From: a virus
Taxonomy: Duplodnaviria > Caudoviricetes
IMG/VR virus record: IMGVR_UViG_3300037440_000524
Location: 1-54,209 of that record
Strand: one strand, 5' to 3'
Length of the DNA stretch: 54,209 bases
Of the stretch, positions 1,741 to 46,742 are shown piece after piece. The position numbers were made by a program, and so were the translations under genes. Each line of letters starts with the position of its first letter. The first letter of the stretch is position 1. The notes under the pieces were generated by a model that had not been told where the DNA came from, did no database searches, and was given only the letters and a program-made list of their open reading frames with translations.

Positions 1741-1958
1741 TCTCAGCCAAAACATGCTTTCGGTGCGGAGAGCTAAAGCCAGCAGAAGAGTTCTACCGAC
1801 ACTTAGGTATGTCGGATGGAAGGATCAACAGCGTGGCTGCGTCTGCCACTTGCGCGAGCGAATCCGCACCGCGCTGGAAAGAGCTGTTCGATGCTCTACG
1901 AATCGAGACGACCAGATACGGGCGTGCTCGGCCCGGGCGGGGGAGGGGGCGTGACTAG
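1737..1958 (+). pseudogene. Truncated/chimeric endonuclease N-terminal Zn-ribbon fragment
   Basis: KTCFRCGELKPAEEFYRH.GMSDGRIN resembles the N-terminus of phage HNH/EndoVII proteins, but the second Cys pair and nuclease domain are absent. Confidence 0.5.
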
Positions 1959-1961
1959 GCT

Positions 1962-2249
1962 GTGACCCGTCGAGATCGAGAGCTCGCCGCTGACATCGAG
2001 GACCGGATTGTGCGTAGACTCGTCCGACACGGGATCTTGCCGCGTCGCGCATTGGAGGATCTATGCGACGAGGCAACAACACAAGAGGACGAGTCTATGG
2101 ACCATACGAAGAACCCCGCGGCGGATGGCGAGTCATCGTCGTCGATGCCACGGGGCAGCGTACTAGTACGACGTTTGCGCGAGAAAGAGAAGCGTGGGCG
2201 GAGAAACTCGCCGCAGATCGAGAGCTCCAGGCGGAGACGGTCACCGTGA
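1962..2249 (+). CDS. Hypothetical protein overlapping integrase 5' end (excisionase position)
   Basis: GTG start after a G-rich stretch; position only. Confidence 0.35.
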   Translation: MTRRDRELAADIEDRIVRRLVRHGILPRRALEDLCDEATTQEDESMDHTKNPAADGESSSSMPRGSVLVRRLREKEKRGRRNSPQIESSRRRRSP

Positions 2250-3079
2250 GCCGCGCGTTCGAGCTCTATGGCGAGTACCAGGTCGCGAAGGGCAACAAGC
2301 CTCGCAGCATCTCCACGACCATGGATCGGTTGCGCAGCATGTTCACCGATCCCGATGAGTACATCGTCGATCTCAGCAAGCAGCGGTGCCAGCGCCTATA
2401 CGACAACCTGGCGGGGCGCGTGGCCGTTGACACGCACAGGAACACGCTCAACCAGGCGCGCACGTTCCTACGATGGGCTGAGAAGCGTGGCTTCATCAAG
2501 GCGAACCAGCTGCTCCATGTGGACGGCATCGGTAGGCGACGGCGAGGGAAGCCTCAGCTTCGCATCGACGAGGCGCGACAGTTTCTGGCAGTGGCCACGG
2601 CCCTGGCTCGGACCGGTGACAGAGGAGCGCTCGGGTCGATGATGGCTCTGTTGATGGGGATGAGGGCGAGCGAGATCCTTCGCCTTCAGTCCCGTGATGT
2701 GGACGACGCCGGGCGGGTGGTCTGGATCGATGACGCCAAGACGGAGGCGGGTCGTAGGACGCTCTACGTTTCGCCGGAGCTAACGGATCTGCTCATGGAT
2801 GCGGCCCGCGACGGGGGCGCCCTGTTCCCGACCACGGAACACCAGTGGCTGAACCGGCAGGTGGAGAAGCTCTGCTCCATCGCTGGGGTCCCTCGAGTGT
2901 GCAGCCACGGTCTCCGCGGGACCCACGCCACCCTGGGCACCGAGTTTGGCTCGAGCTCCCTGGTGGTCAGCCAGGCCCTCGGACACGCCAACGAGGGCAT
3001 CACCCGGGCGCACTACACTCTCCCCGAGGCAACGTCCGTCGCCCTCCAGCGGCGGGTCACTCTCAGGCTCAAGGAGTAG
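2063..3079 (+). CDS. int: Tyrosine recombinase / phage integrase
   Basis: GMRASE (R), AKT (K), HGLR, LGH, HY catalytic residues; N-terminal arm-binding-like region. Confidence 0.95.
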   Translation: MRRGNNTRGRVYGPYEEPRGGWRVIVVDATGQRTSTTFAREREAWAEKLAADRELQAETVTVSRAFELYGEYQVAKGNKPRSISTTMDRLRSMFTDPDEYIVDLSKQRCQRLYDNLAGRVAVDTHRNTLNQARTFLRWAEKRGFIKANQLLHVDGIGRRRRGKPQLRIDEARQFLAVATALARTGDRGALGSMMALLMGMRASEILRLQSRDVDDAGRVVWIDDAKTEAGRRTLYVSPELTDLLMDAARDGGALFPTTEHQWLNRQVEKLCSIAGVPRVCSHGLRGTHATLGTEFGSSSLVVSQALGHANEGITRAHYTLPEATSVALQRRVTLRLKE

Positions 3080-3081
3080 CT

Positions 3082-3408
3082 ATGGACCAACGAGGGGCAA
3101 GGAATCGCAACTGGAAGGGCGGGGTCTCAGCAGAGGCGTACCGCTACACCAAGCGGTTCAGGGTGAAGTACCCCGAGAAGGCTCGAGCGCACGACAAGGT
3201 GCGCCGGGCCATCGAGGCGGGCCTTCTGGTGAGGATGCCGTGCGAGGCCTGTGGGGCCGAGCGCGCCCACGCTCATCATGAGGATTACTCGGCGCCCCTC
3301 GATGTCCGATGGATCTGTCAGAAGTGCCACAGCGGAGTACATGCAGGTTCGCTCCGGGTGGAGTCGCCTCGCACCCCCTTCGAATGGCGGGGGAGGGTGC
3401 GTAAGTGA
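3082..3408 (+). CDS. HNH-type endonuclease
   Basis: NRNWKGG, PCEACG..AHAHHEDYSAPLDVRWICQKCH; SD AAGGAG upstream. Confidence 0.8.
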   Translation: MDQRGARNRNWKGGVSAEAYRYTKRFRVKYPEKARAHDKVRRAIEAGLLVRMPCEACGAERAHAHHEDYSAPLDVRWICQKCHSGVHAGSLRVESPRTPFEWRGRVRK

Positions 3409-3418
3409 CCCCATCGAA

Positions 3419-3596
3419 CCTTTCCGCAGCCTTTCCGCAGAGAGATTCGATGGGGGCTAAGTTGTCGGGGCGACAAGATTTGAACTTGCGACCCCCAGAC
3501 CCCCAGTCCAAGGGGGCCGAGCAATATCCGACATGTAGTCAACGTATTTTTCCGCGGCCCGGCAAGATCCCGTCTTCGTTGGTGGTACTGCGGAAA
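3419..3596. promoter_or_regulatory. Putative integrase arm-type sites flanking the attP core
   Basis: CCTTTCCGCAG tandem at 3419-3440; TTTCCGCGG at 3549-3557; inverted CTGCGGAAA at 3588-3596. Confidence 0.65.
3464..3508 (-). other. attP core: 3' half of tRNA-Pro(GGG)
   Basis: Reverse complement GACTGGGGGTCTGGGGGTCGCAAGTTCAAATCTTGTCGCCCCGAC contains the anticodon loop, T arm and 3' acceptor strand; no 5' half; lies downstream of the integrase. Confidence 0.88.
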
Positions 3597-3628
3597 ACTG
3601 TCTCCCCCACCCCCGAGCAGGTGAGCCG

Positions 3629-3865
3629 ATGAGCGCCCGCGAGACCGTCCCCGGCGATCGCCGCTGGGTCCGCACCGCTGAGCGACGGCCACCGAGCGGC
3701 TGGGAGGGCGTGGTCATGCGCTCGGACGGCCACGAGACCAGGCTGGTCTACGAGCGGCCTCTGTGGTGGCTGCCGGACCGGTCCATGTACGTCTACTACC
3801 AGCCGGTCATGTGGGCGGAGGAGGAGTCACCGGCCCGCCCGAAGTCGAGGGAGGGGTCGCGATGA
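3629..3865 (+). CDS. Hypothetical protein
   Basis: SD-like AGGTG; coupled to the next ORF by ATGA. Confidence 0.6.
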   Translation: MSARETVPGDRRWVRTAERRPPSGWEGVVMRSDGHETRLVYERPLWWLPDRSMYVYYQPVMWAEEESPARPKSREGSR

Positions 3866-4041
3866 GCCGGGCATTGGCGAAAGCGCTTGCACGTGAGGCC
3901 GCGTCCGCGTTGCTCACGGGGCTGGCGACCAAGGTTGGGGAGAACTTGGCGACCTGGATCCTGCGGCCAAGAGCTGACGTATCCGAGCAGGCAAGCCCAG
4001 AGACCCGATGCGAGTCCGAGGACAAGCAGGTGACCCGATGA
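3862..4041 (+). CDS. Hypothetical protein
   Basis: ATGA-coupled on both sides; start MSRALAKA. Confidence 0.55.
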   Translation: MSRALAKALAREAASALLTGLATKVGENLATWILRPRADVSEQASPETRCESEDKQVTR

Positions 4042-10304: not shown

Positions 10305-10624
10305 GGCTCCTCCGGGTGCTTGAGCAGGTGCTCAGTCAGGGACTTGACGCTGTCGCGCGTCTCCTGCGCGGCCTCGCGTGTCGCCTCCATGGTCGCCTCG
10401 ATCGCAGCGCCTCTGTGCTCGAGCTGGCGCACGCGTCCGTCGAGCACTCGGTCCGCGTCGTGGAGCGGCGCCAGTTCGTCGCTGGTCACGTAGCGCTGGA
10501 TGTACAGGGCCGCGCTGCTGGCCGCTATAGCCACCGCGATTAGGACCGAGATCGCCTTCCAGGTCGCGCTCAGGTGTTGCCACCAGGCGAGGGGGCGGGG
10601 CGGGGTCGTGTCGCGGCCGGTCAT
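10301..10624 (-). CDS. Membrane protein with coiled coil (lysis-associated)
   Basis: One TM followed by heptad-like repeats; ATGA-coupled. Confidence 0.6.
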   Translation of the reverse strand: MTGRDTTPPRPLAWWQHLSATWKAISVLIAVAIAASSAALYIQRYVTSDELAPLHDADRVLDGRVRQLEHRGAAIEATMEATREAAQETRDSVKSLTEHLLKHPEEP

Positions 10625-11649
10625 TCCCCCCTCATCGTGGCGAGGTAGGCGTCCCAGTCCTGCTCTGCGTTTGCGTCCTTCCAGACGCACACTAGGACTA
10701 CCTTCCCAGCACAAGATGTTGCTGCGCCGGCGGGGGCGCCAACGCCGGTCCTCTGGTCGCTACTCGCAGACTCGTCGTGCGTGCCGGGGATGTGCTCGAG
10801 ATCTGTGCGAGTACCACTAAGATTGGCGGTAGCGTCGCGGTACCAGAGGAATTGATGGACCGCGCCGGTGGTGTGATCCTGAGCTCCAGATGAGGAGAGC
10901 ACGCCATTGTGCTGTGTAAACACTAGCCCACTGGCATTAATGAGAGTGCGATCTGTACCGCCTCCGGCCGTGGTCCAGGTGAGGCCCGCCGCCGGTGTGT
11001 CGGGTACTCCGATAACGAGAATCGCAAACGACTCGCCGGCCGCCAGGTCGGTCCCGGCGGCCACGGACGCGAATGCCTCGCCGGCCGATCCGTCCACGCC
11101 AACAAAAGGTGCCGACCACCCCGATACCGACTGCTGATAAGACGGCGTCCCGAAGGCCGTGAGTGCTAGTCCGGTGACCTTGTCGATGAGATCTCCGCTC
11201 GCCTCGTCGCAGGTCCAGATGTAGTCTGGGATCGCGAGCCCGAGCGTCGTGAAGTGGCTCTCTTCAGTCGGCAGATACCAACTGTCTGGCCCGTCGGTGG
11301 GCACCACCTCGCTCACCTCCACCTGCTGCTCCACAAACACCGTCGCCCCATCATCATCCGTGACCGTCAGCCGCACCGTGTATTCGCCGTCCTCGGCGTA
11401 CTCGTGCGTCGGGTGCTGGTCGGTCTTATACTCGGGATCGGACTCGTCGCCGAAGTCCCAGAGCCAAGCGACTACGGTGCCGTCCGCGTCTGTGGACTCG
11501 TCGGTGAATTCGACGGATAGACCGTCTGCTACGAACGAGAACGCTGCCATCGGCGGCTGATTTGGAGCAACAGACTCAGGCGCGTTGCCTACCAGGAACT
11601 GCTGCAACAACCGCGCGTCGGCTGCGGCGACAACGTCGATCCTTTTCAT
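10621..11649 (-). CDS. Virion protein with PKD (Ig-like) domain and LamG/ConA-like domain
   Basis: PPMAAF..VEFTD.STD.DG.VVAWLWDFGD..HPTHEY..G.YTVRLTVTDDDG. Confidence 0.8.
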   Translation of the reverse strand: MKRIDVVAAADARLLQQFLVGNAPESVAPNQPPMAAFSFVADGLSVEFTDESTDADGTVVAWLWDFGDESDPEYKTDQHPTHEYAEDGEYTVRLTVTDDDGATVFVEQQVEVSEVVPTDGPDSWYLPTEESHFTTLGLAIPDYIWTCDEASGDLIDKVTGLALTAFGTPSYQQSVSGWSAPFVGVDGSAGEAFASVAAGTDLAAGESFAILVIGVPDTPAAGLTWTTAGGGTDRTLINASGLVFTQHNGVLSSSGAQDHTTGAVHQFLWYRDATANLSGTRTDLEHIPGTHDESASSDQRTGVGAPAGAATSCAGKVVLVCVWKDANAEQDWDAYLATMRGE

Positions 11650-12830
11650 TCGGCGACTCCTGCCAGGAGCCCGCCTACCGGATCGTATTCGCCATCCTCG
11701 AATGTCGGGGCATTCACCGGCGTGAGCGTATTGCCGTTGCCAGAGAAGTCGGTGTAGCTGCCGTCAAGAGGCCAGGAGCCCTGCAGCCCGTCGGTGCTAA
11801 CCGGAAAGTCGAGCGAGGCGATCTCTTCGTCGGTGAGCGCGCGGTCGTAGATCTGGACGTTGCGGAGGTCGCCGTTGAAGTAGCGAGCGACATCAGACCG
11901 CCCTCCGACCTCGAACGAACTCGTGCCATCGAAGATGCTCGCCTCGTTGCCATCGCTCTGCGTTATCGGGTACTCGATGCCGTCGAAGTAGAAGTGGATC
12001 CGCTCCTGCACCGTCGAGCCAGCCTCACCATCAAACGTGACTGCCACGTGATGCCACGTATCAACCACCAGAGGGACGGTCGCGTAGTTGAAGGGCCCGA
12101 CCGCGCCGTCAGCGGATGACCAGAACGCGAGTCGCTGCGTGGAGCCGGAGGCGTGCAGGTACATCACGTAGGAGCGCTGTCCGTTGATGTTCCCCTTGCC
12201 GCAGATCGTGTAGTACTCGCTGGCGCCCGGGAGGCTCGAGACGCGGACCCACGCACGAAGTGTCAGTGTCGTCGTGAACCCGAGCCCGGTCGGCGCTGTC
12301 ACGCCGGCGTACTGGCTCGACGCCCGCTCCAGGTGCAGCGCCAGCCCTTGCCCACCGAAACCAAGCCCCGGATCTTCTCCCTCGAACGCGAACATCTCGT
12401 CCAGATCATTGCCATGGTGCTCGAGCAAGATCCGCACGCCGGCGCTAACGACATCGCGCAGGAAGCTAATGAGGACGGTAGCCAGCTCGTCGCTCATCTC
12501 TACGCCGCTCACCCGCAGAGTCAACGCGGCTGGGTACTCCGGGACGATCTCAAGGTATGCGTCGGGATCGAATACGACGAGGTTAGACACCTTGATGACG
12601 TCCTCGATGTTGCCGTCGCTGCGATTCGTCGCCACGCGGGCGCGCACGTAACGGCGATAAGTCTCATCGTCCAGGCCAAGTCGCGGCTGCCCGACGAGCT
12701 TGCCGAGCGCATCGAGCTGTACACCTACCGCAAGGTCGATCGAGCGCTGCTCCAGGATGGCGAGCATCGCGTCTTCTACCTCTTGTAGAGGCGACACGAG
12801 AGCGGCGAGGAAGTTGCGGAGGTTGCTCAT
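11646..12830 (-). CDS. Baseplate wedge protein (gpI/DUF2612-like) fused to LamG domain
   Basis: AVGVQLDALGKLVGQPR, DDETYRRYVRAR; C-terminal WHHVAVTFDG, FNGDL..VQIYDRALT. Confidence 0.8.
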   Translation of the reverse strand: MSNLRNFLAALVSPLQEVEDAMLAILEQRSIDLAVGVQLDALGKLVGQPRLGLDDETYRRYVRARVATNRSDGNIEDVIKVSNLVVFDPDAYLEIVPEYPAALTLRVSGVEMSDELATVLISFLRDVVSAGVRILLEHHGNDLDEMFAFEGEDPGLGFGGQGLALHLERASSQYAGVTAPTGLGFTTTLTLRAWVRVSSLPGASEYYTICGKGNINGQRSYVMYLHASGSTQRLAFWSSADGAVGPFNYATVPLVVDTWHHVAVTFDGEAGSTVQERIHFYFDGIEYPITQSDGNEASIFDGTSSFEVGGRSDVARYFNGDLRNVQIYDRALTDEEIASLDFPVSTDGLQGSWPLDGSYTDFSGNGNTLTPVNAPTFEDGEYDPVGGLLAGVAE

Positions 12831-12864
12831 GTTAGTTCGTTGAGAGGTAGGTCACCGGGGGCCA

Positions 12865-14382
12865 TTACGAGCTCGAAATCACAAACCAGCGCTGTTCAAC
12901 GCTGTCGTAACGCAGGGTCGCTGCCTGTCCTCGGGTAAGCGTCAGGTCCGTGGCCCCTGGGCACACAATACGGTTTTCCTCCAGAGAGCCTGTATTTTCG
13001 TGCCTTAGAGTTGTTGTCCCCGCAGCGTGAACAGCGACCACGAGTAGCTGGCGGCCATCAACCTGGGAGAGGCTAAACCCGCTGATGCTTAGCCCCGCCG
13101 TAGTGTTGTCCTTGAGCACCTCGAGGATGGAGGCGTTACCGGGGGCGTAGTTGTGGATGTTTCCGCCGCCGCCAGTTGCGGTTGTTTTTTCTACCGCGTC
13201 GGTGAAAACGGTCCTTCGGTATGCGGACCCACTGTCGCGCGCGTATGAGAACCCTATGCCATCGTAGTAGTTCACGTGCACCGGGTCTGCGAGAACAATG
13301 GTGCGCGAAAGGCCCGACTGCATTGTGTCCAGCAGAAAGTTTCCGCTGAACGTGCCCGTGCCGCCTTCCGAGTGAAACTTTACCGAGGACAGGGCTGGGC
13401 TCGTTCGGCCGTTTCCCGAACCTCCGGTATTCCGCGCCGCAACGAACGGGCGGGGGAGAGCGACCGTCCAGCTGTAGAAGCTGTCCCGCAGGGAAAACCC
13501 TTTGCAGTTGGTGACCTCGAAAATTGCCGCATCGGCCGGAGCCGTACCGTCCAGCGTCGCTTCCACGTGCATGTTGTCCATCGTGATATCGATGACGGTG
13601 TGCAGGTAGAACGGCGAGTCGCTGTGTAGCGTAGGCGCAGCCGTCCACTCAGATACGTGGAGGTCGGAACCAGAGGCTTGGACATGCAGTTCTCGCTTCC
13701 AGTTGCTGCCATAGCAGACTATGTGGCTAAGTTCCCCTCCATTGTGGGAACCCTGAACGTCAGAGTTTGCCCAAAGACCAATCGCGACCGTACCCGACGC
13801 TGCGCTGCTAAACGACAAGTGTTGCATGTACCCGCTCTCCTGCATATGCACCCAGGAGAGGCATGTGATGTCTTCGTTACCGTTTGTTTCAAACCTAAGA
13901 AACTCAATCTGCGGGTAATATTGTGGGTTCGCTGTAGTGTTCGGTCGGTTCCCATCGTTACCGGCGGCCCAGTCAGCGTCGGTCCAGTTCCTTAAAATCT
14001 CCGAGCCAGACCAGCCCGATGCCACGCAGCGAAGAGTTGACCCTCGTCGGGATGTACCCGCGAGACGGACTCTGTTGGTGTAGTTTAAGGGGCGGCTAAT
14101 TAAGTATATGCCGAGCGGAAAAAATAGCTCAGAGTCCGCGGGCGCCCCGTCAATCGCCGCCTGAATCGCCGCCGTGTCGTCGGTGACGCCGTCTCCCTTG
14201 GCGCCGAATGTCCGCACGTCGATCGCCAGCGCGCCGCCGCCGTTGAGAAAAAACTCGTCCCGTAGCGCCTGGTTGCGTCGGAGCAGAGCCGCGCGCCCCT
14301 GCTCGTTCTCCGCTACCTTTGCCTCGAGGCGCTGAATGACCGCACTCGCCTCGCTCAGTGTGCGGTACTTGCCGGCCATCAC
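12865..14382 (-). CDS. Tailspike / pectate-lyase-like beta-helix protein
   Basis: DVRTFGAKGDGVTDDTAAIQAAID...FPLGIYLIS. Confidence 0.8.
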   Translation of the reverse strand: MMAGKYRTLSEASAVIQRLEAKVAENEQGRAALLRRNQALRDEFFLNGGGALAIDVRTFGAKGDGVTDDTAAIQAAIDGAPADSELFFPLGIYLISRPLNYTNRVRLAGTSRRGSTLRCVASGWSGSEILRNWTDADWAAGNDGNRPNTTANPQYYPQIEFLRFETNGNEDITCLSWVHMQESGYMQHLSFSSAASGTVAIGLWANSDVQGSHNGGELSHIVCYGSNWKRELHVQASGSDLHVSEWTAAPTLHSDSPFYLHTVIDITMDNMHVEATLDGTAPADAAIFEVTNCKGFSLRDSFYSWTVALPRPFVAARNTGGSGNGRTSPALSSVKFHSEGGTGTFSGNFLLDTMQSGLSRTIVLADPVHVNYYDGIGFSYARDSGSAYRRTVFTDAVEKTTATGGGGNIHNYAPGNASILEVLKDNTTAGLSISGFSLSQVDGRQLLVVAVHAAGTTTLRHENTGSLEENRIVCPGATDLTLTRGQAATLRYDSVEQRWFVISSS

Positions 14383-14888
14383 GGCACCCCCGTGGAACTG
14401 TACTTGCTGGTTACCGCGAATCCCTTGGATTCACGGATCCGTATATATCTTTCAGAGGCCCTTCTGTTTTTGCACGCACGACAGACTCGCTTTCCTTGGC
14501 AAATGATTGTGTTTCCATCAGTGTACTCGTGACCTTTTGGGCATTGCGTCTTCGCTTTCTGGATCGCGCCCATTGCCCGTCCCCCCGCCGATGGTATGTC
14601 ACTTCGTCGTAGGTTCTCTGCGTGCGTGACAGCTTCCAGGTGCCGCGGATTGCAGCAAGGAGGTGTCTTGCATAGATGGTCAAGCTCGAGACCGTCTGGC
14701 ACCGGACCGACAAAATGCTCATATGCCGCTACGTGCGTTCCTACCAACGAAGTTCCTCGCCTCCCTCGACGGATCTGTCCATAACCTACTGCACGATATC
14801 CATTCCATATCCAGCACCCAGTGTCTGGATCTACGTTTACCTTGGCGAGCAGTCGGTCAATTAGTGGGCGCGTGATTTTTGGCATCAT
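14379..14888 (-). CDS. HNH homing endonuclease
   Basis: CWIW.G..GYG..H..AYE..ELDHLC..CCNPRHLEAVT..ENL; KTQCPKGH. Confidence 0.92.
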   Translation of the reverse strand: MMPKITRPLIDRLLAKVNVDPDTGCWIWNGYRAVGYGQIRRGRRGTSLVGTHVAAYEHFVGPVPDGLELDHLCKTPPCCNPRHLEAVTHAENLRRSDIPSAGGRAMGAIQKAKTQCPKGHEYTDGNTIICQGKRVCRACKNRRASERYIRIRESKGFAVTSKYSSTGVP

Positions 14889-16228
14889 GGAACTCCCGTA
14901 GAACTGCTGTCTACGAGTATTCTACTCGTATCATATTGCGCCAACTGCCTGAGCGAGATCGCAATCGTCGTGCTACCGCTCGGGCTTGGTGAGGCGCCGA
15001 TGTCGATAGAGAGTACGTCGAGCACGCCTGGCACCTTGAACGCCTGCGCACCCAGAGAGAACGCCACTGCGTCTTTGCCGGTCGGCTGCGCGTCGCCGAA
15101 CAGCACGATCGCTAGCTTGACCTGATCGTCACCGTCGGACGGATAAACCAGCGGGTCAACGTGGAGCTCGATGTCGATGTAGATCTCAATCTCTTCAGGC
15201 CGCGAAAACGAGACGTCGATCTCGGTGCCCTGCGAGTCAGCTGCAGTGCCGTCCTCGGTGCCGTGCGTCTCGATACCAGCGGCAACGTTGGCGAGTAGCG
15301 AATCCCAGATGTCCTGGTCATCGCCGCCCTGCACGAGCGCCTCAACGCTCTTGGGTGGCATCCCGTCAGGGTCGGTGACCATCGAGTTGTTCACGAACAC
15401 GGTCACAGCTGTGACGCCAGTGACTTGCAGCAACGCGGCGCGGATACCGTCCTTCGTGCTCGACCCGCTCGCGGCCAGCTCGAGCTCGCGCCTCAGCCGA
15501 AGATCCTCGTCGGTCTCTTCGAGTCGTCCTAGCGTCGCGTCCAGTAGATTGATAACCCCGTTCCAGCCAGAGACCGGGGTCTCGATCTCGGTGATGGTGC
15601 CGCTTACCGCCAGCGTTGGGCCTACCTCAGCGGCCGCCGATGGCACGTCGATGGCGCCGGTGCCCTCACCCATGAATCGCCAAGTCACCGTGTTGTCCAC
15701 GATGACGCTGTCCTCGCCAGTAGGGCCGCCGCTCGAGTCGCTGGTGCCGGCGACCGTAGCCACGTAGGCGTTGCCGTCGTTCGTGACCTGGCTACCTAGC
15801 GCATAGGAGGTATCTGCCTCCCACGCGTCGAGCTCCTCAATCGTTGCGTCCTCGAGGGTGACGAACTCCACCTCGGTCACTGTTTGGCTTGCGCGGCTGC
15901 CCTCCGAGACTATCGTGAGAGGCGTGCCGGTGAGCGTGAGCGCCGCCAGGCTGGGCCGCGCCTCGCGCCGCAGTGTGCCCGTGAGTGCGCTGATGGCGTC
16001 AAGCTGCGCACCTGTAGCCGAGTCCGGGTCGAGCGACCCGTTGACGAGCTCGAGCCCCTCTTCGGCAAGCGCAATCTGCTCTGCAACGATTCCAGCCCAC
16101 TGTCCCTCGATCGATCCGTCGGACATGTCGATCGATGGTGCGATACGGCTGTGGACCTCGGCGTTGATCTCCTCGCGAATATCCTGGAGCGATCTGATTA
16201 CCAGCCCTTCTAGGGTCAGCTCAGCCAT
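14885..16228 (-). CDS. Baseplate J-like protein
   Basis: LDPDSATGAQLD, ETDEDLRLRR, GSST.DGIRAAL, FSRP. Confidence 0.92.
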   Translation of the reverse strand: MAELTLEGLVIRSLQDIREEINAEVHSRIAPSIDMSDGSIEGQWAGIVAEQIALAEEGLELVNGSLDPDSATGAQLDAISALTGTLRREARPSLAALTLTGTPLTIVSEGSRASQTVTEVEFVTLEDATIEELDAWEADTSYALGSQVTNDGNAYVATVAGTSDSSGGPTGEDSVIVDNTVTWRFMGEGTGAIDVPSAAAEVGPTLAVSGTITEIETPVSGWNGVINLLDATLGRLEETDEDLRLRRELELAASGSSTKDGIRAALLQVTGVTAVTVFVNNSMVTDPDGMPPKSVEALVQGGDDQDIWDSLLANVAAGIETHGTEDGTAADSQGTEIDVSFSRPEEIEIYIDIELHVDPLVYPSDGDDQVKLAIVLFGDAQPTGKDAVAFSLGAQAFKVPGVLDVLSIDIGASPSPSGSTTIAISLRQLAQYDTSRILVDSSSTGVP

Positions 16229-16244
16229 GATACGCTCCTAGATC

Positions 16245-16673
16245 ATGCGCTTTTCGATCGCCGCCCTGACCTTGCTGGTTGCTTGCGCCCCGCCACTGCC
16301 CGGAGAACCGGTCGATCCCCCAGAGGGAGTAGATGTGGCGGCCGAGATTGCGATGGGAGAGTGGAGCGAGCGCCTGCTCGCGCCCGGGCGGCAATTCGAG
16401 ATCCCGGACATTCTGTGGTTCGATATGGATTGCTTCCCAATCGAATCTGGAGACTGCGTCCCTGCCTACTACGGATCTGGCCGCTTCTACCGTCCCGAGA
16501 TCCATATCGTCACCCGGGTCGTGAGTGAGCCGTTCCCAGCCGACGACATCTCCCATGAGCTCCTCCATGCCGCGCTCGACCAAATGGGAGAGGCATACGG
16601 AGATGGCGAACACCTGAGACCGGAATGGGAACAGGTCCACGATGTCTCTGATATCGCCAGCTCTGCGTTCTGA
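16245..16673 (+). CDS. Antisense lipoprotein with HEXXH (zincin-like) motif; moron
   Basis: MRFSIAALTLLVAC lipobox; ISHELLHAAL...D.EH. Confidence 0.75.
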   Translation: MRFSIAALTLLVACAPPLPGEPVDPPEGVDVAAEIAMGEWSERLLAPGRQFEIPDILWFDMDCFPIESGDCVPAYYGSGRFYRPEIHIVTRVVSEPFPADDISHELLHAALDQMGEAYGDGEHLRPEWEQVHDVSDIASSAF

Positions 16674-16675
16674 GA

Positions 16676-17284
16676 TCACGGCGCGGGCCTGTCGTAAATG
16701 ACTTCTACGTAGCTGACTAGAGCAGTGTCCCCGGCCCCGCTGGACTCGATCACTACCGCATAAGAGGAGTCCTCCAGGATGGTGTGATCGATCCCGGGGC
16801 CGAGCGGCACCTCGCCAGCCGACACGTTCTCGCTCGCCACGCTGACCGGGCTCCCCGGAGCTGCGCGAGGCACTCGGTAGAAATCGATGAACGGGGTGCC
16901 TGCGACGGAAGAAAAGTAGAGAATGATGTCTTTGACCCGGTCCCCTGCCCTTAGGTTGATTGGCACAGCCGCGGCGTCTTCCTCTGCAGAAGAAGACAGC
17001 CCCGATTCAAATGCTCCAATAGAGACGCCTGACGGTCCGTTGTGGACGATGAACGACGCCGGGCTGATGATGAGTTTTCTGTCTCCGTGATAGACCTCTC
17101 CGACCTCAAGGTCGCCCTCGTCTAGGTAATCAATCCACCTCGATACTGATCTCCAAAAAAAATTGAACGTTTGAGCCGGTGGTCTCTCACCAGGAGCCCA
17201 ACCGGCCAATTTTTTTCCGGCGTTAGGCTCAATGACATCGTCATCGTCTGGGTCCCAGCCGGGGACTTCGGTTGGCTTGGCCAT
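16676..17284 (-). CDS. Tail fibre-type protein
   Basis: MAKP..W...EP...K..GW..GERPPAQ.FN.F is a typical myovirus fibre N-terminus. Confidence 0.75.
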   Translation of the reverse strand: MAKPTEVPGWDPDDDDVIEPNAGKKLAGWAPGERPPAQTFNFFWRSVSRWIDYLDEGDLEVGEVYHGDRKLIISPASFIVHNGPSGVSIGAFESGLSSSAEEDAAAVPINLRAGDRVKDIILYFSSVAGTPFIDFYRVPRAAPGSPVSVASENVSAGEVPLGPGIDHTILEDSSYAVVIESSGAGDTALVSYVEVIYDRPAP

Positions 17285-45687: not shown

Positions 45688-46206
45688 TTACTGCCCTACC
45701 CCCGTCCTGAACACGATCGACTCGACCGGCGGCCGCGCAGGCTTGCAGGATTCTCGCTCAGCCCTTAGTCGGCGTCTCCTCTCGGTCACGTAACGTACGA
45801 CGCAGCGCCGGCATGTCCGACTGCCGTCCTTGTTAATGCGCGTGTTCTTCGCGTCGAACGGATGGCCATGAGAGCAATGCGTCTTGCCCGCGTTTCGAGA
45901 GGGGATGGTTTCCCCTCGGAGAAGGTTCTCTCGCCGAGTAACAGGCTCTAGGTGTTTCGGGTTGCAGCACGATCTCACTCGGCACAGATGGTCCATATCC
46001 AGTCCTTCTTTGACTGTTTCGACCAGGGCCTCGTAGGCGAACCGATGGGCAGAGACACGTCTCCTGGTCCCGTCGGTAACGGAACCAACACGAAATTGTC
46101 CGTAGCCAGACGGGTAGAGTCCGGCTGTCCAGAGCCAGCATTCGGCTTCGGGATCTGGCTGGACCTTCGCCCAGAAGCGAGGTGGAAGTCGGGGGTCGCC
46201 GATCAT
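45688..46206 (-). CDS. HNH homing endonuclease (paralog of 14379-14888)
   Basis: RFWAKV..CWLW..GYG..AHR.AYE..MDHLCR..CCNP.HLEPVT..ENL; KTHCSHGH. Confidence 0.92.
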   Translation of the reverse strand: MIGDPRLPPRFWAKVQPDPEAECWLWTAGLYPSGYGQFRVGSVTDGTRRRVSAHRFAYEALVETVKEGLDMDHLCRVRSCCNPKHLEPVTRRENLLRGETIPSRNAGKTHCSHGHPFDAKNTRINKDGSRTCRRCVVRYVTERRRRLRAERESCKPARPPVESIVFRTGVGQ

Positions 46207-46742
46207 AGCCTCACCCTGCCGAACTGACTGAACTCCTCCTCGAACATTTGCACGGTTCCGACTCGTCTCCCCGGAAGGCAGGAAATGTAGTTCCCGTGCG
46301 TGGGAGACTTCCGGCCACCATCGATTGAGTCGAACGCGATCCGTCGCCGCGGAAAGCAGATCGGGAAGTCGAGCGGCGTCTCCTCGAAACGCTGGAGCGT
46401 CTGGAGCTGCTCGAGCGAGTACCCGATCCAGATCGCGGCGGTCACGTCACCGGCGCGCCAGTGCTCGGCGAGCTTGCACCAGAATTCGCGAACGAGACCT
46501 CCGGGCGGGTTGAGAAATACCGTCCCATACCAGTGCGCGTCGAGCCCGTTGTGCTCGGCCGTGAAGTAGCGCGCGGCCTGGATGCGCTCCTGGGCCAGGT
46601 CGCAGCTAGACGGATCCATCTCGATGTGGCCGCGGAGTACCGTGCGCGCGGCTTCGACGATCGGGACCGGGGTGAACCACTCGTGGCTCGCCTTCGATCG
46701 AAGGGCGGCGCCCGCGTGCGTCTTAGCCAGACTGGCAGTCAC
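46203..46742 (-). CDS. Phage N6-adenine DNA methyltransferase-like protein
   Basis: EWFTP, DPSS, NGL...W.G.VFLNPPG, R.RIAF. Confidence 0.78.
   Translation of the reverse strand: MTASLAKTHAGAALRSKASHEWFTPVPIVEAARTVLRGHIEMDPSSCDLAQERIQAARYFTAEHNGLDAHWYGTVFLNPPGGLVREFWCKLAEHWRAGDVTAAIWIGYSLEQLQTLQRFEETPLDFPICFPRRRIAFDSIDGGRKSPTHGNYISCLPGRRVGTVQMFEEEFSQFGRVRL

Follow-up and report, generated by a model that had tools for sequence, protein, structure and literature searches.

Gene organization of the locus

An HNH endonuclease gene is located between the baseplate J gene and a tail depolymerase gene in an uncultured, 63%-GC phage. All three genes are on the minus strand of the window, i.e. the whole stretch of 54,209 nucleotides that was analyzed. 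The baseplate J gene (14885–16228) has a translated sequence of 447 aa and matches Pfam Baseplate_J (E-value = 1.2e-11) and PHROG 6, ‘baseplate wedge subunit’ (E-value = 1.3e-50). Codons 1–430, the J body (14939–16228), display a genome-typical codon usage with GC3 values of about 0.7–0.87 in sliding windows. Codons 431–447, the J tail (14888–14938; QYDTSRILVDSSSTGVP), display A/T-ending codons and may represent an imported replacement terminus.

The HNH_3 endonuclease gene (14379–14888) has a predicted chain length of 169 aa from the first ATG and 168 aa from the second. It is an open reading frame with its own start, which overlaps the J stop codon, and is thus free-standing. The gene that follows is a pectate-lyase-like tail depolymerase (12865–14379) with matches to Pfam Pect-lyase_RHGA_epim (E-value = 1.5e-18) and to PHROG tail and tail-spike families. 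The form on record is 504 aa long with its start ATG at 14379, and it is translationally coupled to the HNH gene.

The HNH core is at aa positions 50–94 (14607–14741), where the sequence matches PF13392 (HNH_3) at 49.5 bits, well over the family cut-off of 24.8 (E-value = 3.4e-13). The protein also matches PHROG 826, ‘HNH endonuclease’ (E-value = 6.3e-48). In a 31-sequence alignment D70, H71, C73, C78, H83, N92, C116, H120, C136 and C139 are invariant, and these are presumably the catalytic and metal- or zinc-binding residues of the family. C116, H120, C136 and C139 form a C-terminal Cys/His cluster (14472–14543). The AlphaFold model has a mean pLDDT of 87. The HNH protein looks intact because of the Pfam and PHROG matches, the invariant catalytic and zinc residues and the confident fold; a nuclease activity is presumed. 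Matches of the model to PDB folds are weak, i.e. I-PpoI (E-value = 9e-3, TM 0.31) and I-HmuI (E-value = 0.056, TM 0.37), with none at E ≤ 0.001, and a sequence search of the PDB gave one match (E-value = 0.085), which is not an endonuclease. A paralogue of 47% identity is found in the replication module; paralogues elsewhere in the genome are usual for selfish endonuclease genes. The combination of HNH-3 with a C-terminal zinc finger has been called Mob-like (PMC10448857, in the portion consulted), and the architecture found here is like that of T4 Mob proteins by domain layout.

Introns and ribozymes appear to play no part, as Rfam gives no matches at E ≤ 1 in positions 13800–15600. An intron-free homing into an operon was proposed in the preliminary description; homing of that kind is already textbook knowledge for free-standing phage endonuclease genes. 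The only unusual part is the insertion within a gene with a retained duplicate.

The duplicated terminus and its codon composition

The J protein terminates in ...LVDSSSTGVP-TGA and the HNH protein in ...SKYSSTGVP-TGA, and at both ends the sequence TGATG overlaps the stop codon with the next ATG. Gene calls and sequence thus bear out the preliminary description, where both genes were said to end in SSTGVP, a stop codon and an ATG. A repeat search shows that positions 14377–14400 and 14883–14906 are a 24-nt direct repeat in the same frame, with 20 of the 24 nt identical. Copy 1 (14883–14906) consists of the last base of the Ser442 codon, the SSTGVP codons, TGA and TG. It contains a Shine-Dalgarno-like GGGAG at 14893–14897, the J stop codon at 14885–14887 and the HNH ATGs at 14886–14888 and 14883–14885. 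Copy 2 (14377–14400) contains the last six codons of the HNH gene (SSTGVP, G/C-ending), TGA and TG, with the HNH stop codon at 14379–14381 and the depolymerase ATG at 14377–14379; it may be a remnant of the native J terminus. The peptide common to both copies is therefore six codons long, not eight. Coupling signals are kept at both junctions, as had been proposed, since a G-rich Shine-Dalgarno-like run and TGATG are present in each copy.

The four differences between the copies (TCT/TCC, GGA/GGG, GTT/GTG and CCA/CCG) are exactly those reported previously. All are at third positions and synonymous; the J copy ends these codons in A/T, the HNH copy in G/C. If four differences were placed at random in 18 coding positions, all of them would hit the six third positions with a probability of 15/3060, i.e. 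0.005. This pattern fits two J termini which diverged with the peptide under selection, in genomes that differ in base composition. An extension of the duplicate upstream of these 24 nt is not significant (score 6.5 compared with a shuffle mean of 7.9), and with so short a duplicate the point of insertion cannot be fixed.

The SSTGVP tail is not a property of the HNH family. None of 30 aligned homologues carries it and these stop 10–25 residues past the CxxC, thus the HNH protein has no evident need for the sequence. A tail duplicate was also absent from the seven junctions of cultured-phage homologues (six actinophages), where 29 of 500 shuffles scored at least as high as the best of them, so that tail duplication does not appear to be a habit of these endonuclease genes. 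The second HNH gene of the window (45688–46206) and the gene that precedes it have no tail repeat in common.

The codon composition of the two termini differs greatly. The last 17 codons of J have a GC3 of 0.29, compared with 0.76 for the whole of J and 0.73 for the gene set of the window, and among 12,232 windows of 17 codons each, their codon-usage score falls within the lowest 0.07%. The HNH gene has a GC3 of 0.52 overall, 0.76 in its last 17 codons and 0.88 in its last eight. These values confirm the codon usage originally described, an A/T-ending J end and a G/C-ending copy at the HNH end. An unbiased two-change-point likelihood scan of GC3 across J, HNH and depolymerase delimits a low-GC3 island, with its ends at J codon 431 (14938; support 427–435) and HNH codon 152 (support 146–164) and 2ΔlnL = 44.5. 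The support range on the HNH side takes in the start of the repeat. The depolymerase gene has a genome-typical GC content of 0.64–0.71 in its first approximately 230 nt, and a low stretch of 0.47–0.55 at 13650–13950.

Judged by codons, the current J terminus looks foreign, and the copy that closes the HNH gene looks native. This is consistent with the earlier idea that the mobile element supplied a recoded terminus, as far as a foreign J tail and a native-looking copy are concerned; the word “recoded” however implies adaptation, and an A/T-ending J tail is equally expected from co-conversion of the orthologous J end of a lower-GC relative. The GC3 of the J tail is even below that of the HNH gene, so a shared donor composition for the two holds only roughly.

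Relatives and an allele from another metagenome

No HNH homologue is found by tblastn at 21 loci of relatives (the positive control gave an E-value of 2.5e-115). All of these relatives are distant, with 30%–58% J identity, and some are one contig drawn from two collections. On these distant loci the presence of the HNH gene next to J is sporadic. At 12 loci from IMG/VR the J C-terminus is ...YDTSRI.V....G.P or similar and is followed by an unrelated gene. The gene after J is DUF2612-like in four loci (L001, L002, L005 and L008) and a different large open reading frame in L003 and L004. Three IMG/VR contigs with HNH homologues show varied contexts, which in their ORF listings are not obviously beside a baseplate gene.

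The closest J sequence, P0122, is 96% identical and is available as protein only. It has the consensus residues T431 and A438 where the window has Q431 and L438, each of which is found in only one of 120 J homologue tails, i.e. that of the window itself. None of the sequences in the 90% clusters of the HNH, depolymerase or LamG gene is on the 3956-nt contig of P0122, as judged from cluster contig counts that are incomplete (two-source entries still show one contig). This suggests that the genes 3′ of J differ between close lineages. A protein search with the LamG gene, made for the size of this contig, gave no informative member. By eye, the HNH tail A-V-T-S-(KY)-SSTGVP resembles P0122 I-A-V-D-S-SSTGVP with a two-codon insertion; this resemblance is not counted as evidence.

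Other searches for related alleles gave little. Scans of IMG/VR and JGI metagenomes with J found nothing closer than 58%, and a scan of genome contigs found only six weak partial matches (30%–35% identity over about 70–95 residues). A degenerate SSTGVP-stop-ATG pattern has three matches in IMG/VR, all out of frame and due to chance. An HNH-less joint was not seen in read mapping of four runs.

An independent metagenome run from another study, X2, contains a second allele, assembled at only about 3–5× coverage into short contigs. Over positions 13000–14965, which cover the J tail, the HNH gene and depolymerase sequence, X2 and the window differ at two of 1962 aligned nt. In the J body there are 92 mismatches in 1195 nt (7.7%; 15/185, 26/274 and 51/736 in the individual pieces). 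The J tail at 14888–14938 is identical in X2 in spite of its divergent J body. The fraction of sampled words shared with X2, 0.63, matches the identical fraction. The switch zone, a recombination boundary at 14953–14965 without strand assignment, has near-identity at lower coordinates and 7%–9% divergence at higher coordinates. It is seen in record 13 (14740–14965, one mismatch) and record 14 (14953–15137, 15 mismatches), thus the chimera is deduced from abutting contigs and not from a single spanning contig. The zone adjoins the switch in composition at 14938. In 15602–15980, 23 of the 34 listed X2 variants keep the amino acid, which indicates that X2 J is orthologous to the J gene of the window.

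The identity over 13000–14965, together with the divergence of J upstream of 14953, indicates that the J tail travels with the HNH block. This pattern fits transfer with co-conversion of flanking sequences. The exchanged unit is larger than an HNH cassette, since 1.4 kb or more of the depolymerase gene belongs to the identical block. The right-hand end of this block lies at 13000 or further on. The exchange may be driven by the depolymerase module and not by the HNH gene. Run X3 covers the stretch in part and is identical, 14967–15117 included, and run X4 has only two depolymerase pieces; neither adds an independent allele.

Possible origin of the arrangement

The probable explanation is that a homing-type, free-standing HNH gene arrived along with a J terminus of foreign origin, and that the native terminus became the last six codons of the HNH gene, where it still couples translation of the depolymerase. 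The HNH gene would have entered the last codons of the J gene, in an incoming unit composed of a foreign version of the last approximately 17 codons of J (A/T-ending, with two residue changes) and the HNH open reading frame. At the far side this reading frame would have been joined in frame to what remained of the resident J terminus. This remnant would comprise at least the last six codons with their stop codon, together with the Shine-Dalgarno-like run and the ATG of the following gene that overlaps the stop. The outcome would be a J protein of full length, an HNH protein translated through coupling to J, and a depolymerase gene that retains its original coupling signal. Repair of a break near the 3′ end of J is the most likely origin. 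In the presumed order of events, homologous recombination with an HNH-bearing relative would account for the J side and illegitimate joining for the other side, as donor and recipient would have had non-homologous tail-fibre or depolymerase genes downstream of J. The block would still be moving between lineages by recombination, with the neighbouring depolymerase gene. A six-codon remnant beside a replaced tail of 17 codons needs an extra step, e.g. resection or illegitimate joining.

A more specific proposal is tentative. Here the mobile unit would be a cassette of three parts (a cleavage-resistant J 3′ end, the HNH gene and a captured native end) that homes inside a coding sequence without intron or intein. 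The enzyme would target the native J terminus, immunity would come from the recoded, cleavage-protected terminus, and the cassette would drag the depolymerase gene between lineages.

Other explanations can be considered. It is unlikely, although with some evidence in its favor, that a host-range swap produced the arrangement, with the depolymerase cassette as the exchanged unit, its left joint in the conserved J terminus, the HNH gene a passive passenger and the 24-nt duplicate an old scar of illegitimate recombination. The reach of the X2-identical block into the depolymerase gene, the different genes that follow J in relatives and the low-GC stretch of the depolymerase core all agree with such a swap. 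The composition island, however, coincides exactly in its start with the J tail and extends across the HNH gene, while the start of the depolymerase gene is genome-typical. In addition, the synonymous-only differences and the in-frame capture place the HNH gene precisely between two J termini, and nuclease genes at exchange boundaries are a pattern described in phages, at least in the portion of PMC10448857 consulted. Similarity of the two gene ends by coincidence or convergence, from a shared need for a Shine-Dalgarno run and a TGATG overlap, is very improbable. The repeat does include these elements, and as a bare 20/24 match it is unexceptional, being within range of the 19 direct-repeat families in the same 1.7-kb region. 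The identity nevertheless spans six amino acids and extends past the Shine-Dalgarno run; a degenerate 23-mer covering both copies has no other match in the 54-kb window and none at all in 100 shuffles; the local alignment score between the J and HNH tails is reached in two of 2000 shuffles; and neither the seven other HNH junctions nor the second HNH gene displays anything similar.

Local duplication is also rather improbable. In this case the insertion itself would have copied about 24 nt of the resident J end, and 17 J codons would later have drifted, or have been selected, to A/T endings, e.g. to keep the initiation region unstructured or to provide the HNH gene with a weak promoter. The fold at the J-tail/HNH start is indeed less stable, at −14 kcal/mol compared with −19 kcal/mol at the HNH-tail/depolymerase start, and there is one sigma-70-like match in the J tail (14913–14884). 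The folds, however, do not differ from shuffles (z = −1.65 and −0.01), and the promoter count is at shuffle expectation (1 compared with 0.7), as are the results of the promoter and terminator scan in general. The last 17 codons of the HNH gene are also 5′ of a coupled start, that of the depolymerase, and are not A/T-rich, thus no general rule is apparent. Drift in place would further leave unexplained the X2 boundary at the start of the tail and the two unique residue changes.

Import of a foreign J terminus with the HNH gene would have a precedent. By analogy, the J/HNH layout is of the same kind as that of the mobile endonuclease open reading frames (mORFs) of fungal mitochondria, which make hybrid genes, e.g. 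atp6 in Allomyces macrogynus and atp6, atp9, cox2 and nad3 in Glomus sp. (PMC3630166; all statements on mORFs refer to the portion consulted). In the mORFs, and probably in the phage, a foreign C-terminal piece directly 5′ of the endonuclease reading frame has taken the place of an essential gene's own end, and a duplicate with the native C-terminus is retained on the downstream side; the two copies differ mostly synonymously. The C-terminal coding end of J is likewise duplicated 3′ of the endonuclease reading frame, with support for six codons only. The mORF arrangement has been read as horizontal transfer by homing (PMC3630166). The mORFs differ in that their enzymes are LAGLIDADG or GIY-YIG types in organelle genomes, whereas an HNH enzyme in a phage late operon is found here. 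Their duplicates are about 50–280 nt with a native copy that is usually untranslated, unlike the six codons translated here as the HNH tail. They are described without operons or stop/start coupling, whereas the presumed remnant in the phage doubles as the coupling signal of the next gene (PMC3630166).

Similarities to phage endonuclease genes are also present. The free-standing Seg/Mob endonucleases of T4-type phages are, as here, genes alone between conserved genes and sporadic among relatives, and mobE overlaps its upstream stop codon (UAAUGA) as the HNH gene overlaps that of J (PMC2988022, in the text available). Intronless homing spreads by break repair with co-conversion of flanks (PMC2988022), and co-conversion and marker exclusion are summarized in the part of PMC12724721 consulted. 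T4-type endonuclease genes lie between genes, however, and a duplicated host terminus fused to an endonuclease does not appear in the available text of PMC2988022, where ‘duplicat’ occurs 0 times. In mycobacteriophage Omega, a high-GC actinophage, the acquisition of HNH gene 51 altered the 3′ end of the upstream lysin A gene, and the change was attributed to faulty repair or to a donor with a different genomic context (PMC3706429). The Omega event differs in the loss of 35 bp of target and the creation of a new 3′ end, and a retained in-frame duplicate or synonymous replacement is not described in the portion of PMC3706429 consulted. In ICP1 and other phages an endonuclease gene is found where identity between relatives switches, as with X2 at 14953–14965 (PMC10448857). 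The ICP1 work is comparative and on cultured Vibrio phages, and the portion consulted does not describe duplication of a host-gene terminus.

The present case is one locus in one uncultured phage, with a junction known to within about 30 nt. The presumed native J terminus, which is retained, would predict the cut site of the enzyme, and the target is thus directly testable. If the proposed origin is true, introns and inteins would not be the only ways for phages to accommodate a selfish nuclease gene inside an essential gene that remains unharmed; a third would be to bring a spare end of that gene, which has so far been described for fungal mitochondria. The locus would also be a testable example of a nuclease gene that marks, and probably drives, the exchange of a host-range module, the tail depolymerase, between related phages.

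Gene order, duplicated terminus and base composition

The baseplate J gene (14885–16228, minus strand; Pfam Baseplate_J, PHROG 6 "baseplate wedge subunit") and its neighbors are part of a minus-strand late operon in this IMG/VR virus record of 54,209 bp, which has 63% G+C and a CheckV completeness of 66%. On the same strand there follow an HNH_3 endonuclease gene (14379–14888), a pectate-lyase-like tail depolymerase gene (12865–14379), and open reading frames for a DUF2612 and LamG protein (11646–12830) and a PKD-domain protein (10621–11649). Just upstream of J and within the tail operon is a plus-strand open reading frame of 142 aa (16245–16673). Its start (MRFSIAALTLLVAC) is lipoprotein-like, it contains an HELLH motif, and an open reading frame of 152 aa on the minus strand (16221–16679) overlaps it. 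Neither has a Pfam match, and the plus-strand frame has none in PHROG. J residues 135–165 (about 15734–15826) show a weak CBM_5_12-like stretch (E 0.0012, below the Pfam cut-off), which is overlapped by the weak matches of J among genome contigs (J residues 75–171).

The preliminary description had J and HNH sharing the same end, and this is confirmed: both terminate in SSTGVP-TGA, and in both the stop codon overlaps the next ATG as TGATG. By a repeat search, nucleotide positions 14377–14400 and 14883–14906 form a 24-nt direct repeat, identical at 20 of 24 positions, which consists of one base, the six codons of the common peptide of 6 residues, TGA and TG. The four differences (TCT/TCC, GGA/GGG, GTT/GTG and CCA/CCG) are all at third positions of four-fold degenerate codons, with A or T in the J copy and G or C in the HNH copy at every one. 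There are 19 repeat families within 1.7 kb, thus as a bare repeat the 24-nt sequence is unremarkable. The HNH stop and the depolymerase start both lie within an imperfect palindrome at 14360–14387 (17-nt arms, 76% complementary).

The contrast between an A/T-ending J tail and a G/C-ending HNH copy also holds. GC3 is 0.76 for the whole J gene and 0.29 for its last 17 codons, and the usage score of these codons is in the lowest 0.07% of 12,232 17-codon windows from the window's genes. The whole HNH gene has a GC3 of 0.52 and its last 8 codons 0.88. A two-change-point likelihood scan was performed on the concatenated J, HNH and depolymerase codons, with the repeat not used as input. It places the start of a low-GC3 segment at J codon 431, coordinate 14938 (support 427–435), and the end at HNH codon 152 (support 146–164, a range in which the repeat begins); inside the segment GC3 is 0.47, outside it 0.73 (2ΔlnL = 44.5). 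The low-GC island thus comprises the J tail and HNH, with its end close to the beginning of the G/C-ending copy.

The HNH protein and its homologues

The HNH sequence matches HNH_3 well over the Pfam cut-off and also matches PHROG 826. Alignment with 30 homologues shows no variation at the HNH-core residues or at a Cys/His cluster near the C-terminus. The predicted fold has a mean pLDDT of 87, which is 58 over residues 161–169, the region with the duplicated peptide. Among solved structures, the homing endonucleases I-PpoI and I-HmuI come closest, with weak similarity (E 0.009–0.056). Homologues are frequent in actinophages, where they are annotated as HNH endonuclease, and in six cultured actinophage examples the homologue overlaps both of its neighbors by a few bases. 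Homologues stop 10–25 residues past CxxC, and none of the 30 aligned has SSTGVP. No intron-like RNA was found in the J/HNH region. In Gordonia phage Smoothie a homologue (gene 51) is located between two genes annotated as endolysin/lysin A (1863–3885 of the locus), with 4-nt overlaps with both; here a lysin gene may have been split by an endonuclease gene.

A second HNH_3 gene of the window (45688–46206, minus strand), with 47% identity to the first, lies just upstream of replication genes and overlaps the stop codon of a Dam-like gene (46203–46742). Its GC3 is 0.66 compared with 0.82 in the upstream neighbor. Alignment of its tail with that of the upstream gene gave no duplicate.

Related J loci and metagenome runs

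J relatives at 30%–58% identity were found at 12 IMG/VR loci and 9 metagenome loci, and none of these 21 (some contigs are in both collections) has an HNH homologue in the fetched flanks, the positive control giving E 2.5e-115. At the 12 IMG/VR loci J ends in ...YDTSRI.V....G.P or similar, and a different gene follows at once or within about 10 nt, often with a TAATG/ATGA overlap. From these comparisons SSTGVP appears to be part of the natural C-terminus of J, and HNH appears to have been inserted between genes that otherwise adjoin closely. The gene order around J (11646–17284) is unlike that of three distant relatives (L001, L005, L008). In these, a DUF2612-like gene comes after J and is itself followed by a protein with the start MAKPT..P.WA....EP.SGKK..GW; in the window a protein with a MAKPT-type start (16676–17284) is upstream of J, and the depolymerase gene is inserted ahead of the DUF2612 gene.

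A JGI contig of 3,956 nt encodes P0122, a J protein of 331 aa that is truncated at the N-terminus and 96% identical to the window's J (12 of 331 residues differ). Its sequence ends ...LATYDTSRIAVDSSSTGVP, that of the window ...LAQYDTSRILVDSSSTGVP. Q431 and L438 each occur once among 120 J homologues, in the window itself; the common alternatives are T at 431 (30/120) and A at 438 (8/120). Some 2,960 nt of the contig lie beyond J. For a contig of this length, the contig counts, which are incomplete (entries with two sources show one), record no member of the clusters at 90% identity of HNH, depolymerase or LamG protein, and this suggests that other genes follow J in the P0122 lineage.

Four metagenome runs that match the window were compared over 13000–16300. 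One (X1) is probably the source sample. In X2, from an independent study, contigs differ from window positions 13000–14965 by 2 mismatches in 1962 aligned nt, and the two junctions and two repeat copies are all covered. The J-body contigs of X2 differ at 15/185, 26/274 and 51/736 nt (7.7% overall), and the near-identical and divergent contigs abut at 14953–14965. The X2 depth is uniform at about 3–5×, no identical J-body contig is listed, and the run's share of sampled words, 0.63, is the same as the fraction of the query that is identical. Thus the near-identical block and the divergent J body, as read from abutting contigs, would both be in one X2 genome. The 34 X2 variants listed in 15602–15980 include 23 that keep the amino acid, as expected for an orthologous J. 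The X2 changes V120A, V123T and G145N are absent from P0122, so P0122, seen as protein only, stands for a third, separate lineage. The window and X2, two lineages whose J genes differ by about 8%, appear to have an essentially identical block in common, which extends from the J tail through HNH and at least 1.4 kb into the depolymerase gene (compared down to 13000). The left edge of the X2 block is at most about 30 nt from the composition switch.

A third run (X3) is the same as the window wherever covered, 14967–15117 included, and a fourth (X4) has two depolymerase pieces only. No contig that skips HNH was seen over 13000–16300 in any of the four. Depth spikes at 14110–14220 (56, 28.9, 6.9 and 16.8 in the four runs) are many short contigs less than 90% alike, which carry the conserved pectate-lyase N-terminal motif that other organisms share, and a copy-number signal was rejected for this reason. 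The depolymerase core (13650–13950) has 47%–55% G+C and the first ~230 nt of the gene 64%–71%; this composition suggests a mosaic gene, in which an enzymatic domain was imported and the N-terminal adaptor is native.

Proposed origin of the duplicate and comparison with known systems

The A/T-ending copy runs without a break into the low-GC HNH gene, has two odd residues and moves with HNH in X2, and the G/C-ending copy resembles the rest of the genome. For these reasons the J tail now in use is read as imported together with HNH, and the last six HNH codons as a putative stump of the resident J terminus. We consider this reading, taken as a whole, moderately probable. Differences that are exclusively synonymous would be expected of two J termini that diverged under selection for the same peptide in different base compositions. 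The preliminary description proposed that the element supplied a recoded terminus. The part that stands is that the foreign-looking J tail travels with HNH, as X2 shows; a co-transferred foreign terminus appears more apt than purposeful recoding, and the transferred block appears to take in the depolymerase gene.

The event may have begun with a break near the 3′ end of J in a phage lacking HNH, which was repaired from a relative bearing it. The J side would have been repaired by homology and the other side by an illegitimate in-frame join, at a place where the downstream tail genes of donor and recipient did not match. In-frame joins would be favored: HNH gains a stop codon, and the native Shine-Dalgarno-like run and TGATG are left for the depolymerase gene. 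The imported tail would give HNH the same signals (GGGAG, TGATG). Should the native J terminus be the target, the recognition site would have to reach upstream of the remaining 24 nt, since the phage would otherwise cut itself; insertion would then have interrupted this site, as happens in classical homing. In the J copy in use, 4/18 positions are different, and more upstream. Cutting, target and immunity are all inferred.

Other origins were weighed against import of the J tail with HNH. The exchange seen in X2 may have been a swap of a host-range module, with the joint in the conserved end of J and HNH as a passenger, and this we consider unlikely. Still less likely is a duplicate of local origin, with the J tail turned A/T-rich in place for HNH expression; it receives no real support from folding and promoter scans and leaves X2 unexplained. 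That the likeness arose by chance, or by convergence towards a motif for coupling, is very improbable. A degenerate 23-mer that fits both copies has no other site in the window and was found in 0 of 100 shuffles, the local alignment score of the two tails was matched by 2 of 2000 shuffles, and by our own arithmetic the probability that four differences all fall on the 6 wobble positions of 18 is 0.005. The pattern of four exclusively synonymous differences is not what a freshly made target-site duplication would show.

The preliminary description also read the arrangement as splicing-free homing into an essential operon. Such homing is not new, since according to PMC2988022 and PMC12724721 it is textbook in T4-type phages, where free-standing endonuclease genes overlap the upstream stop codon and spread with co-conversion of flanks. 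PMC10448857 describes as Mob-like the combination of an HNH-3 core and a zinc finger at the C-terminus, and its theme of nuclease genes at exchange boundaries fits the X2 result. In mycobacteriophage Omega, a gene's 3′ end was altered when an HNH gene was acquired downstream of it (PMC3706429). The word stem "duplicat" does not occur in the T4 review (PMC2988022). A host-gene terminus duplicated in frame and retained was not found for any phage in the literature searched, which lies outside subscription journals and supplements, although absence is not proven. The full architecture, i.e. a foreign C-terminus, an endonuclease open reading frame and a retained native C-terminus, is described in PMC3630166 for mobile endonuclease open reading frames of fungal mitochondria (Glomus atp6, atp9, cox2 and nad3; Allomyces atp6), with the native C-terminus sometimes in phase and its differences mostly synonymous. 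The present case is a single locus in an uncultured phage, but it is neat and precisely bounded.
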